From a virus (lineage: Duplodnaviria > Heunggongvirae > Uroviricota > Caudoviricetes): 39,288 nucleotides of DNA. This document shows positions 6,039 through 16,394 of this stretch, piece after piece; within the stretch, counting starts at the first letter, position 1, and each line of letters starts with the position of its first letter. The stretch is taken from the IMG/VR virus record IMGVR_UViG_2740892273_000013. The stretch is one strand, 5' to 3'. Made by a program: the position numbers and the translations under genes. The notes under the pieces were generated by a model. That model did not search any database. It saw nothing but the letters and a program-made list of their open reading frames with translations, and was not told the origin of the DNA.

Positions 6039-6871
6039 ACAGTTTAACGGCAAATAACCGTTTGTCGCAACAGCTGGTGGTCAGCGTCGCTGAACACCTG
6101 TTGTTACGGCATGAATGCAGATTACCAAATCACCTGGCTGTAAGTAACCACAGAGAACTTTACCTGACTGTGGGGGGCGAGTTGTGCAGGAACTTAACCG
6201 CTGGTTTCGTGACGGAAGAGGACTTTATGTTCATGTTATTCGTTGGGAGCCAGAAACACAGCGCGTTATCTATCTTCGCAAAGACTACCCGCATGAGTGC
6301 TTTAGTCCTTTGTGGAAATTCAGGCGTGATTTTGTTGAGTGTGAAGGACCACCAGCACATTGATTCTGCCATTCCGGGACGTTACACTGTTCAGGCACCT
6401 TATAAAGCGGGTGCCGGGATTGGCGTCCTGGAATTGATCAAGGCGATATATGACGCGCCAGCGTCTTTTTTATCGTCCGCATTTGCTCACATCAAAGTTA
6501 TGGTGGGCTGGGCGGGGGCATCGAAAGATGCGCCGGTTTCCTTGATCACCGGTTACGCCAACCCCGTTCAGTTCACCACCAGCGAAATTGGCGTTTCCGG
6601 TGGTGGAAGTATTTCACCGATCAAGGAGGCTGCCATCATGGCTACTGTCCCAGCCCTCACTCGTCTGAATGATGAAGACTTACATAAACTCAGTTATGTA
6701 ACAACTGCACTACGTGCTCTGCGCAAGGTAACTCTTTCGGATCCGCAGGCACATCAGGTTCTGGTAGAAACCCTTCTTAACTTGCAAGCTGAACGTATTC
6801 GTCTGGCGGATAAGGCTAATTTTCATATTCACCGTCTCCTGAATATCAGCGGAGGGCATCGTCATGCTTAA
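6035..6871 (+). CDS. Hypothetical protein (278 aa)
   Basis: ATGA overlap with upstream gene suggests translational coupling; no recognisable motif. Confidence 0.4.
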   Translation: MNSLTANNRLSQQLVVSVAEHLLLRHECRLPNHLAVSNHRELYLTVGGELCRNLTAGFVTEEDFMFMLFVGSQKHSALSIFAKTTRMSALVLCGNSGVILLSVKDHQHIDSAIPGRYTVQAPYKAGAGIGVLELIKAIYDAPASFLSSAFAHIKVMVGWAGASKDAPVSLITGYANPVQFTTSEIGVSGGGSISPIKEAAIMATVPALTRLNDEDLHKLSYVTTALRALRKVTLSDPQAHQVLVETLLNLQAERIRLADKANFHIHRLLNISGGHRHA

Positions 6872-13642: not shown

Positions 13643-14695
13643 ATGAAAAATACTGTAAAAATAAACAGTGTTGATTTAATCAACGCTGATTGCCTGCATT
13701 TTATTCAGTCCCTGCCTGATGATTCCATTGACCTGATTGTTACCGATCCGCCTTACTTCAAGGTGAAACCCAACGGTTGGGACAATCAGTGGAAAGGGGA
13801 CGAAGATTACCTTAAGTGGCTGGACCACTGTCTGGCCCAGTTCTGGCGGGTGTTGAAACCTGCCGGAAGCCTTTACCTGTTCTGTGGGCATCGCCTGGCA
13901 TCTGATATTGAGATCATGATGCGTGAACGTTTCAACGTGCTTAACCATATCATCTGGGCGAAGCCGTCCGGACGTTGGAATGGGTGTAATAAAGAAAGTC
14001 TGCGCGCATATTTTCCTGCCACAGAGCGCGTTCTGTTTGCTGAACATTACCAGGGGCCATATCGCGGCAAAAGTGACGGCTATGCGGCAAAAGAAAGGGA
14101 ACTCAAACAGCACATAATGGCACCGCTGATATCGTATTTCAGGGATGCTCGTGCCGAACTGGGTATAACGGCAAAACAAATTGCCGAAGCCACAGGTAAG
14201 AAAAATATGGTTTCCCACTGGTTTGGTGCCAGTCAGTGGCAGTTGCCGAATGAGGCTGACTATCGGAAGTTACAGGCACTGTTTTCCCGTATAGCGGCAG
14301 AGAAGTTTCAGGAACAACAACTGGAACAACCACACCACCAGCTGGTGGCATCTTATGATTCACTGAATCGTAAATATTCTGAATTGCTGGATGAGTTTAA
14401 ATCTCTCCGGCGCTATTTCTCCGTATCAGTCTCCGTGCCTTATACCGATGTCTGGATGCATAAACCCGTTCAGTTCTACCCGGGGAAACATCCGTGTGAG
14501 AAACCGGCGGATATGCTCAGGCAAATAATCAATGCCAGTAGTCGACCAGGTGATCTGGTTGCTGATTTTTTTATGGGATCCGGTTCCACAATAAAAGCAG
14601 CAATGGCGCTGGGGCGTCGGGCCTTAGGTGTTGAGCTTGAGTCAGAGCGGTTTAATCAGACAGTGAAAGAGATAAACGAGCTGGTGGGGAAATAA
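13643..14695 (+). CDS. DNA methyltransferase, N6-adenine/N4-cytosine type with motif order IV then I (orphan)
   Basis: DPPY near the N-terminus and FxGxG (FFMGSGST) near the C-terminus; no adjacent endonuclease. Confidence 0.7.
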
Positions 14696-14701
14696 TCTGG
14701 T

Positions 14702-14727
14702 GGCCACGTCAGGTGGCCTTTTTATTT
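14702..14727 (+). terminator. Intrinsic terminator after the methyltransferase gene
   Basis: GGCCAC-GTCAG-GTGGCC followed by TTTTTATTT. Confidence 0.6.
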
Positions 14728-14762: not shown

Positions 14763-14978
14763 ATGAAATCCATGGATAAGTTAACAACGGGTGTCGCCTA
14801 TGGCACCTCAGCAGGTAGTGCCGGGTACTGGTTTTTACAGTTGCTCGATAAAGTCACGCCCTCACAGTGGGCGGCAATAGGTGTGCTGGGTAGTCTGGTA
14901 TTTGGCTTGCTGACGTATCTGACAAACCTTTATTTCAAGATTAAAGAAGACAAGCGTAAGGCTGCACGGGGAGAGTAA
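14763..14978 (+). CDS. S: Pinholin (phage 21 S21-like), 71 aa with dual-start M-K-S-M
   Basis: Translation [31 protein letters not shown]... closely matches S21 as recalled from memory. Confidence 0.85.
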
Positions 14979-14982
14979 TTCA

Positions 14983-15333
14983 ATGACTCAAAACTATGAA
15001 CTGATTGTGAAAGGGATCCGCAATTTTGAGAATAAAGTTACGGTAACTTTAGCGTTACGGGACAAAAAACGCTTTGACGGTGAAATTTTTGACCTGGACA
15101 TCTCGCTGGACCGTGTTGAAGGTGCCGCGCTGGAGTTTTATGAGGCAGCAGCCAGAAGGAGCATCAGACAGGTCTTCCTGGATGTTGCTGCCGGGTTATG
15201 TGAAGGGGATGAGCAGTCGCCGGAAAAGCGCCCCGTAATTTTAGATGCGCAGAATGTTTGGATAACCTACAAAGGAAAGCTACCAGGAAGAATTACTGGT
15301 TCTCTGAAGACTCCTCCGGAATCACAACCTTAA
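14983..15333 (+). CDS. Hypothetical 116-aa protein inserted between holin and endolysin
   Basis: ATG with GGAG upstream; no TM segment or signal peptide visible; phage 21 has S directly followed by R (from memory). Confidence 0.5.
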   Translation: MTQNYELIVKGIRNFENKVTVTLALRDKKRFDGEIFDLDISLDRVEGAALEFYEAAARRSIRQVFLDVAAGLCEGDEQSPEKRPVILDAQNVWITYKGKLPGRITGSLKTPPESQP

Positions 15334-15396
15334 GTCACTGACCGGAACAGATAAACCTGTCCGTGGGCAGAAACCGATAAATCCTGATAAATATCC

Positions 15397-15930
15397 ATGA
15401 ACGCAAAAATCAGATACGGCCTGTCGGCTGCCGTTCTGGCACTGATTGCCGTCGGTGCGCCCGCGCCTGATATTCTCGACCAGTTTCTGGATGAAAAAGA
15501 AGGTAACCACACAACGGCATACCGCGATGGGTCCGGCATCTGGACCATCTGTCGGGGTGCCACGATGGTGGATGGAAAACCCGTTTTTCCCGGTATGAAA
15601 CTGTCGAAGGAAAAATGCGACCAGGTCAACGCCATTGAGCGTGATAAGGCGCTGGCATGGGTGGAGCGCAATATTAAAGTACCACTGACCGAGCCACAAA
15701 AAGCGGGTATCGCGTCATTTTGTCCCTATAACATTGGCCCCGGTAAGTGTTTTCCGTCGACGTTTTATAAGCGGCTGAATGCTGGTGATCGTAAAGGTGC
15801 ATGCGAGGCGATTCGCTGGTGGATAAAAGATGGTGGGCGCGATTGCCGCATACGTTCAAATAACTGCTATGGACAGGTTATTCGTCGTGACCAGGAAAGC
15901 GCATTAGCCTGTTGGGGGATAGATCAGTGA
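15397..15930 (+). CDS. R: SAR endolysin (phage 21 R21-like lysozyme)
   Basis: N-terminal Gly/Ala-rich signal-anchor ([16 protein letters not shown]) followed by lysozyme catalytic region ([13 protein letters not shown]). Confidence 0.85.
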
Positions 15931-16394
15931 GCAGAGTCGCCGCGATTATTTATGCTCTGGTTATCTGCATCATCGTCTGCCTGTCGTGGGCGGTCAATCA
16001 TTACCGTGATAACGCCATCGCCTACAAAGAACAGCGTGATAAAAAAGTCAGTGAGCTGAAGCAGGCGACCGCCACCATTACTGACATGCAGCAACGCCAG
16101 CGTGCTGCTGATGTACTCGATGCTAAATACACGAAGGAGTTGGCTGATGCGAAAGCTGAAAATGATGCTCTTCGGCGCAAGCTTGATAATGGTGGTCGGG
16201 TGCTCGTCAAAGGAAAATGCTCTGTGCCATCCTCAGCCGAAACCTCCAGCGCCTCCGGCATGGGCAATGATGCCACCGTCGAACTCTCTCCAGTTGCTGG
16301 ACGAAACGTTCTCGGTATCCGGGACGGAATCATCAGAGACCAGACAGCACTGAGAACGCTTCAGGAATATATCAGGACGCAATGCCTTCGATGA
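15927..16394 (+). CDS. Rz: Rz i-spanin; GTG start overlapping endolysin stop
   Basis: N-terminal TM helix then coiled-coil-like sequence; GTGAGCAGAGTCGCC matches the lambda Rz start with GTG in place of ATG. Confidence 0.75.
16147..16353 (+). CDS. Rz1: Rz1 o-spanin lipoprotein embedded in +1 frame within Rz
   Basis: Lipobox VVGC followed by Pro-rich sequence ([11 protein letters not shown]); entirely inside Rz. Confidence 0.7.

Follow-up and report, generated by a model that had tools for sequence, protein, structure and literature searches.

Functional data on the YdfR/DUF1327 family come from one member, YdfR of Escherichia coli K-12 (PMC13232886). Using RNase G as two-hybrid bait, Göpel et al. 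2026 (PMC13232886) isolated YdfR residues 1-72 three times in their screen. This segment interacted more strongly with RNase E constructs and also gave a signal with Rne 1-597, with which full-length YdfR interacts as well, while Strep-YdfR co-purified Rne1-598-FLAG together with DNase-resistant nucleic acid. The gene is essentially silent in uninduced K-12 (PMC13232886). In the Qin prophage of K-12, ydfR (b1555, P76160; PF07041) is found in the order essQ holin, ydfR, rrrQ lysozyme, rzpQ. A similar arrangement is displayed by the window, that is, the whole 39,288-nucleotide (nt) stretch of the Caudoviricetes record IMGVR_UViG_2740892273_000013. Here an open reading frame (ORF) at 14983-15333 on the + strand, with an ATG start and encoding a soluble, acidic protein of 116 residues (aa), lies in the typical Escherichia YdfR context, between an S21-type holin gene (S) and an RrrQ-type lysozyme gene (R). 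The ORF belongs to the YdfR/DUF1327 family and is an optional late gene, no core lysis component; its product is tentatively read as late-expressed accessory cargo whose N-terminal domain may contact host RNase E and/or RNA late in infection.

The assignment of the 116-aa protein to the catalogued YdfR/DUF1327 family is virtually certain. The protein matches Pfam PF07041 (DUF1327) with 144.3 bits and E=1.4e-42 over model positions 1-92 of 93, the Pfam gathering threshold being 25 bits. It also matches PHROGs 406, 2091 and 1085, all labelled 'unknown function' (406 and 2091 at E~1e-67); NCBIfam contains no model for it, and copies with 100% nucleotide identity carry the RefSeq label 'YdfR family protein'. 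An earlier note on this DNA had described a 116-aa ORF preceded by GGAG, devoid of a transmembrane (TM) segment or signal peptide and ending 63 nt before the lysozyme gene, all of which is borne out by the ORF listing, the sequence and hydropathy. The same note called the ORF unrecognised, a description that does not hold, since a DUF1327 or 'YdfR family protein' gene is annotated at this place in K-12 Qin, in thousands of genomes and in about 100 phage records. The family and its position at the S-R junction are thus already known, and the remaining interest lies in the unsettled role of a very common gene.

The 13.1 kDa protein has an isoelectric point (pI) of 5.5 and a grand average of hydropathy of -0.40, and neither a TM segment nor a signal peptide is found in it, the maximum Kyte-Doolittle value over 19 residues being 0.69. 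The family alignment reveals three parts: a conserved N-domain of ~75 aa, a short linker (DEQSPEKRP) and the near-invariant module VILEAQNVWITYKGKLPGRITGSLKTPP. The N-domain (aa 1-75; 14983-15207, + strand) forms the family core, as delimited by AlphaFold2, BLASTP and hhalign. It carries the signature YEL.VKG ... R.EGA.LEFYEA ... GLCEG, with Tyr-53 and Glu-54 as invariant residues, and the window protein retains all invariant and near-invariant columns. AlphaFold2, run on the family alignment, predicts a strand-strand-strand-helix arrangement for residues 5-73 (predicted local distance difference test score, pLDDT, 70-88) and gives no reliable prediction for the C-terminal 43 residues, 74-116 (pLDDT <50). 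Comparisons with solved and predicted structures, by sequence profile and by structure, returned generic or chance matches only. The linker and the Escherichia-specific C-module (…PEKRPVILDAQNVWITYKGKLPGRITGSLKTPP-ESQP) occupy 15208-15330 on the + strand.

The window ORF and K-12 ydfR share the 4-nt junction after S and a Shine-Dalgarno (SD) sequence inside S, and their products are 81% identical and 96% similar over residues 1-74 (BLASTP). In contrast, the C-termini past residue 74 are unrelated, K-12 YdfR having a 29-aa helical tail in place of the VILDAQNVWITYKGKLPGRITGSLKTPP module of the ORF. In addition, ydfR and rrrQ overlap in K-12 by their stop and start codons, whereas a 63-nt spacer (15334-15396, + strand) separates the ORF stop from the lysozyme ATG at 15397 in the window. 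Although near-invariant within the family, the C-module is missing from K-12 YdfR and from distant homologs. Past the VILEAQNVWITYKGKLPGRITGSLKTPP module, alleles either end (ESQP, KW, LA, EF) or run into a ~65-aa helical extension, of which at least two alternatives exist, giving 176- and 183-aa forms. Longer alleles, of 176/183 aa and 268 aa, come from E. coli/Shigella prophages and PhiR12-type phages; they are identical to the window protein in N-domain, linker and C-module up to …SLKTPP and keep the S-proximal junction. They differ by the extension, in place of which the window protein stops at ESQP, and by a small convergent ORF (phrog_2572, 2411 or 1853) before R, which the window lacks. 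Two further proteins of 170-176 aa, P0186 and P0191, contain two DUF1327-like N-domains in tandem, and the 112-aa P0153 displays the helical 'extension' module ahead of the C-module and no N-domain. Thus, the modules of the YdfR family recombine independently.

The ORF is a real coding gene under purifying selection where it is present, and both its Pfam and PHROG matches and a ratio of nonsynonymous to synonymous substitution rates (dN/dS) well below 1 indicate more than a chance ORF. Across 40 close alleles the ratio is 0.31, with values of 0.41 in the N-domain and 0.24 in the C-part. Over codons 1-74 it is 0.24 against K-12 ydfR (dS 0.40) and 0.33 against PhiR12_5 (dS 1.28). The full length of 116 aa is intact in 34 of 49 distinct alleles.

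By megablast the gene is present in 4269 of 5426 complete E. coli genomes (about 79%), at up to 9 places per genome, which puts it among the most widespread phage genes of this species. In the phage collection a relative is encoded in 101 records, annotated, where an annotation is given, as 'YdfR family protein', 'DUF1327 containing protein' or 'hypothetical protein'. Wherever such a record was inspected, the DUF1327 gene lay between holin and lysozyme. Many lambdoid lysis cassettes, those of Stx1- and Stx2c-converting phages included, express a YdfR gene. The inducible phages PhiR55_1 and PhiR40_1, which are 98% identical to the window over 88% of 24 kb, both carry the ORF. In a pattern scan of one genome per species (185,579 species) the gene was confined to E. 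coli, E. albertii, E. ruysiae and Shigella, besides two contigs of metagenome-assembled genomes. These two, L009 (labelled Veillonella parvula) and L011 (labelled Bacillota bacterium), carry a K-12-Qin-type ydfR and probably reflect E. coli contamination of the bins, not true host range. Among 5.8 billion proteins 313 clusters at 90% identity were found, and an exhaustive profile search of 1.84 billion proteins yielded 88 representatives at E<=0.001. The latter include short, free-standing proteins (72-76 aa) encoded in Yersinia, Pantoea and Cronobacter prophages, in which the N-domain makes up the whole chain. Aligned with the YdfR N-domain (hhalign 99.7%, 79 columns, 25% identity), they are on sequence grounds true homologs. 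They share the Tyr-Glu signature at the helix start and the late-gene strand with the window protein, and differ from it in comprising the N-domain alone, in occupying other positions and in being followed, each of them, by a small opposite-strand ORF.

The presence of the gene at the S-R junction is polymorphic. The S/R pair (>=80% coverage) is found in 325 phage records, compared with 101 records that carry the ORF, so that about two thirds lack it. The S-R match spans 738 bp where the ORF is missing and 1133-1566 bp where a DUF1327 gene intervenes. In many phages with the same S/R pair (most Stx2a-type phages, VT1-Sakai and SH2026Stx1) S and R are 4 nt apart, in agreement with the premise of the earlier note that S can be followed directly by R. 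The phage 21 layout that it cited, S21 and then R21, is encountered in phage vB_EcoS-569R4. Its identity to the window amounts to 98.7% as far as 14979, and to 98.2% once the match resumes at 15925. In place of the intervening block (14980-15924), which comprises the ORF, the spacer and the 177-aa lysozyme, it has, in the segment L100 2718-3207, a 165-aa endolysin whose start overlaps the S stop and which matches PDB 3HDE at E=4e-109. PDB 3HDE is full-length R21 of phage 21 (PMC6024848). To the same structure the window lysozyme shows a distant relationship only (E=4e-16). The swap at exact gene boundaries indicates that the ORF and the 177-aa lysozyme are exchanged as one block, and the lack of the ORF in vB_EcoS-569R4 indicates that a phage sharing these flanks can do without it. 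The earlier note had regarded absence or frameshift of the ORF in close relatives with identical flanks, together with no phenotype on deletion, as telling against its proposal; this holds in part, absence being found, but where present the gene is intact and under purifying selection.

The signals around the ORF are those of a gene borrowing the expression of its neighbours. S (14763-14978, + strand) encodes a class II, pinholin-type protein of 71 aa with the dual start MKSM (PF04971 Phage_holin_2_1, E=2e-35; PHROG holin). Its TAA stop at 14976-14978 leaves a gap of 4 nt before the ORF, and the SD sequence GGGGAG (14968-14973, + strand; GGAG at 14970-14973) lies within the final S codons, 9 nt 5' of the ORF ATG. 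Between 14979 and 15396 no promoter-like or terminator-like site was found. Lacking both elements, the ORF is transcribed on the Q-dependent late message; its translation starts from the S-internal SD, and it is thus produced along with holin and endolysin. The suggestion of the earlier note that the ORF might be cargo exploiting late expression fits these data better than its alternative of a lysis regulator, given the borrowed SD, the missing promoter and terminator and the presence/absence polymorphism. Lambdoid morons of the Hendrix type offer a parallel, as they too are extra genes present or absent between genes adjacent in relatives, and the DUF1327 genes occupy several classic insertion points across genera. 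In contrast to morons, the ORF has neither its own promoter and terminator nor a compositional contrast and relies on late transcription and the S-internal SD. The reading as a classic, autonomously transcribed moron was rejected on this ground. Similarly a compositional island was rejected, the GC content of the ORF (46.7%) resembling that of S (48.1%) and R (52.2%).

For the role of this cargo, the reading given a probability of about 0.4 is that the ~75-aa β3-α N-domain would be the functional core of a cytoplasmic accessory protein and would dock, directly or via RNA, on the N-terminal catalytic half of host RNase E, as suggested by K-12 YdfR. Such docking would adjust RNA decay or processing late in infection, and the variable C-terminal modules might change the partner or the oligomeric state. 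The probability is no higher because the activity is transferred from a homolog 81% identical in the relevant domain; that the window protein has the same RNase E activity, and that the phage benefits from it, is presumed by analogy. Several established modulators of RNase E provide a frame for comparison, namely phage T4 Srd, T7 gp0.7 and phiKZ Dip and the host proteins RraA, RraB and RapZ. Should the K-12 result transfer, the ORF protein would resemble T4 Srd and RapZ in contacting the N-terminal catalytic half of RNase E and not its C-terminal scaffold (PMC13232886). It would differ from the modulators in being expressed late, not early, and its effect on RNase E is putative. If true, the link would represent a case of a temperate phage manipulating the RNA decay of its host at a late stage.

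A number of observations weigh against a function at RNase E. Overexpression of ydfR alters very few transcripts and leaves growth unaffected (PMC13232886). The interaction was seen for the K-12 homolog alone, by two-hybrid and by co-purification from lysates not treated with nuclease (PMC13232886), and the contact may thus be bridged by RNA. Moreover, a full-length, short-linker YdfR fusion interacted only with Rne 1-597 (PMC13232886). On the side of the protein itself, the acidic character of the N-domain (pI 5.0) is not that of a typical RNA binder, and similarity of sequence or fold to RraA, RraB, RapZ, T4 Srd or phiKZ Dip was not found. The strongly conserved C-module of the window allele, missing from K-12 YdfR, is left unexplained. 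Finally, the Escherichia gene is always located at the S-R junction, which a role unrelated to lysis does not by itself explain.

That constant position also speaks for a trans-acting lysis-timing factor, a cytoplasmic protein that would bind the charged C-terminal tail of the S21-type pinholin or control release or translation of the lysozyme, following the antiholin logic of RIII. This alternative is unlikely. It draws on the Escherichia gene always lying 4 nt past an S21-type holin and ahead of an RrrQ-type lysozyme, on co-translation from the S-embedded SD, and on a conserved R leader devoid of an SD combined with the RNA pulled down by K-12 YdfR (PMC13232886). A link of ydfR to envelope integrity, cited in PMC13232886, comes from the Keio mutant, which scored in the chlorophenol red-β-D-galactopyranoside screen for envelope leakiness, in the supplementary hit lists only and with no follow-up (PMC3879167). 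This phenotype may, however, be due to a polar effect on, or read-through of the kan cassette into, the downstream rrrQ. Against lysis timing stand the roughly two thirds of same-S/R records without the ORF and the ~98%-identical phage that does without it. The protein has no TM segment, signal-arrest-release sequence or signal peptide, membrane or periplasmic signals of the kind displayed by most antiholins. Cytoplasmic antiholins such as RIII exist, so that the missing membrane signal is not decisive. Homology to antiholins or other lysis-category proteins (S21-71, T4 RI/RIII, P1 LydB) was likewise not detected in Pfam, where DUF1327 is the only match, in PHROG or in NCBIfam.

The positions of the homologs in other genera point in the same direction. 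The Pantoea gene lies between Q and a class-3 holin gene, with an opposite-strand gene intervening before the holin, the Cronobacter gene follows an Rz fragment, ahead of KilA-N and terminase genes, and in Yersinia and one metagenomic contig the homolog sits between the tail genes M and L. Obligate linkage to a holin is therefore not observed across the homologs, which are missing from most same-S/R cassettes and occur in tail operons or apart from the holin. These locations outside S-R junctions argue against a dedicated lysis regulator, and their variety indicates that the N-domain behaves as a mobile late-operon accessory gene instead of belonging to the lysis machinery. The antiholin-like regulator put forward in the earlier note is accordingly disfavoured.

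A quite unlikely alternative holds that the cargo serves in conflict, as a defence, counter-defence or superinfection-exclusion protein which in other alleles works with a small convergent partner. In relatives a small convergent ORF is very often found 3' of the DUF1327 gene, belonging to PHROGs 25324, 6806, 2572, 2411 and 1853, whose function is unknown. Examples, all on the - strand, are L093 4240-4545, L095 1469-1765, L097 4278-4529 and L098 4247-4486, together with L006 3000-3266, L005 2811-3089 and L091 3317-3631. The frequency and diversity of these partners favour a conflict role, but a comparison of the ORF, the 183-aa allele and two partner ORFs with PADLOC-DB gave no match at E<=1. 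The Pantoea and Cronobacter partner ORFs are 60% identical despite the location of their modules at different prophage positions. One conserved convergent partner of the toxin-antitoxin kind was rejected as a general feature, since the partners fall into at least five unrelated PHROG families, only those of Pantoea and Cronobacter are homologous and the window allele has no convergent partner.

The SD within S is also central to a cis-acting device, in which the ORF would serve to move R off this strong signal and to keep the endolysin dose low, by translational coupling in K-12 or through an SD-less leader in the window, the protein being secondary. The S-embedded SD serving the ORF forms an anti-SD duplex of -8.5 kcal/mol, and an identical motif is found 4 nt 5' of R in SH2026Stx1, where it serves R, as it does where S abuts R. 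In the window R is SD-less (+0.3 kcal/mol). The final 23 nt of the spacer, 15374-15396 (CCGATAAATCCTGATAAATATCC), represent a conserved A/U-rich R leader, and an invariant A/U-rich, SD-less leader …ATAAATATC(C/T) precedes R in 83 of 83 examined DUF1327-bearing cassettes (L003-L092). The ORF thus takes the SD that serves R elsewhere, and its insertion changes how R is translated. This takeover may be a cis side effect of the insertion; it would nonetheless make the ORF relevant to the balance of holin and endolysin dose. As the purpose of the ORF, such a device is improbable. The invariant leader, the strong SD placed before the ORF instead of R and the overlap of ydfR stop and rrrQ start in K-12 would suit it, but purifying selection acts at the amino-acid level (dN/dS 0.24-0.33) and the N-domain is also conserved where it stands alone, in genomic settings other than this one. 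Furthermore, the gap between ORF stop and R ranges from -4 nt (K-12, ATGA overlap) to 452 nt, with the leader kept throughout, so that coupling is not general. An RNA element in the 63-nt spacer was considered and rejected, no significant fold being found in it (z=-0.5), and no Rfam family lies near the ORF locus.

A combination of the RNase E contact with this leader, in which YdfR proteins would act as adaptors, recruiting RNase E to the late lysis transcript or blocking it there, notably on the SD-less leader of the co-inherited RrrQ-type lysozyme, and would thereby set endolysin dose and lysis timing post-transcriptionally, is very improbable. If true, it would constitute a lysis clock based on RNA decay, which has not been described for any phage. 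Least credible is a functionless hitch-hiker kept through linkage to the lysozyme module, since the dispensability of the ORF in related phages, the many truncated, fused or frameshifted variants in databases and the K-12 overexpression without phenotype (PMC13232886) are opposed by dN/dS well below 1 also at dS=0.40 and 1.28, by the predominance of intact 116-aa alleles and by conservation of the N-domain across genera at 25% identity.

Downstream of the spacer, R (15397-15930, + strand) encodes a GH24 lysozyme of RrrQ type, 177 aa in length with a hydrophobic N-terminus, as identified by PF00959 and PDB matches. It is followed by the Rz i-spanin gene (15927-16394, + strand; PF03245, E=8e-29), in which a proline-rich ORF for an Rz1-like lipoprotein (16147-16353, + strand) is nested in the +1 frame. 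On the other side, a DNA methylase gene precedes S and stops at 14695. Between this stop and the S start at 14763 a terminator-like hairpin with a T-run (GGCCACGTCAGGTGGCC; 14702-14718, + strand) is positioned, and late transcription must read through it for S, the ORF and R to be expressed. Further upstream, at 6395-6583 of the window (+ strand), the Hfq-binding RNA isrK (RF01394, 64 bits) adjoins the C4 antisense RNA (RF01695, 82 bits), the pair constituting a c4 antisense immunity element of the P1/P7 type within a lambdoid prophage.
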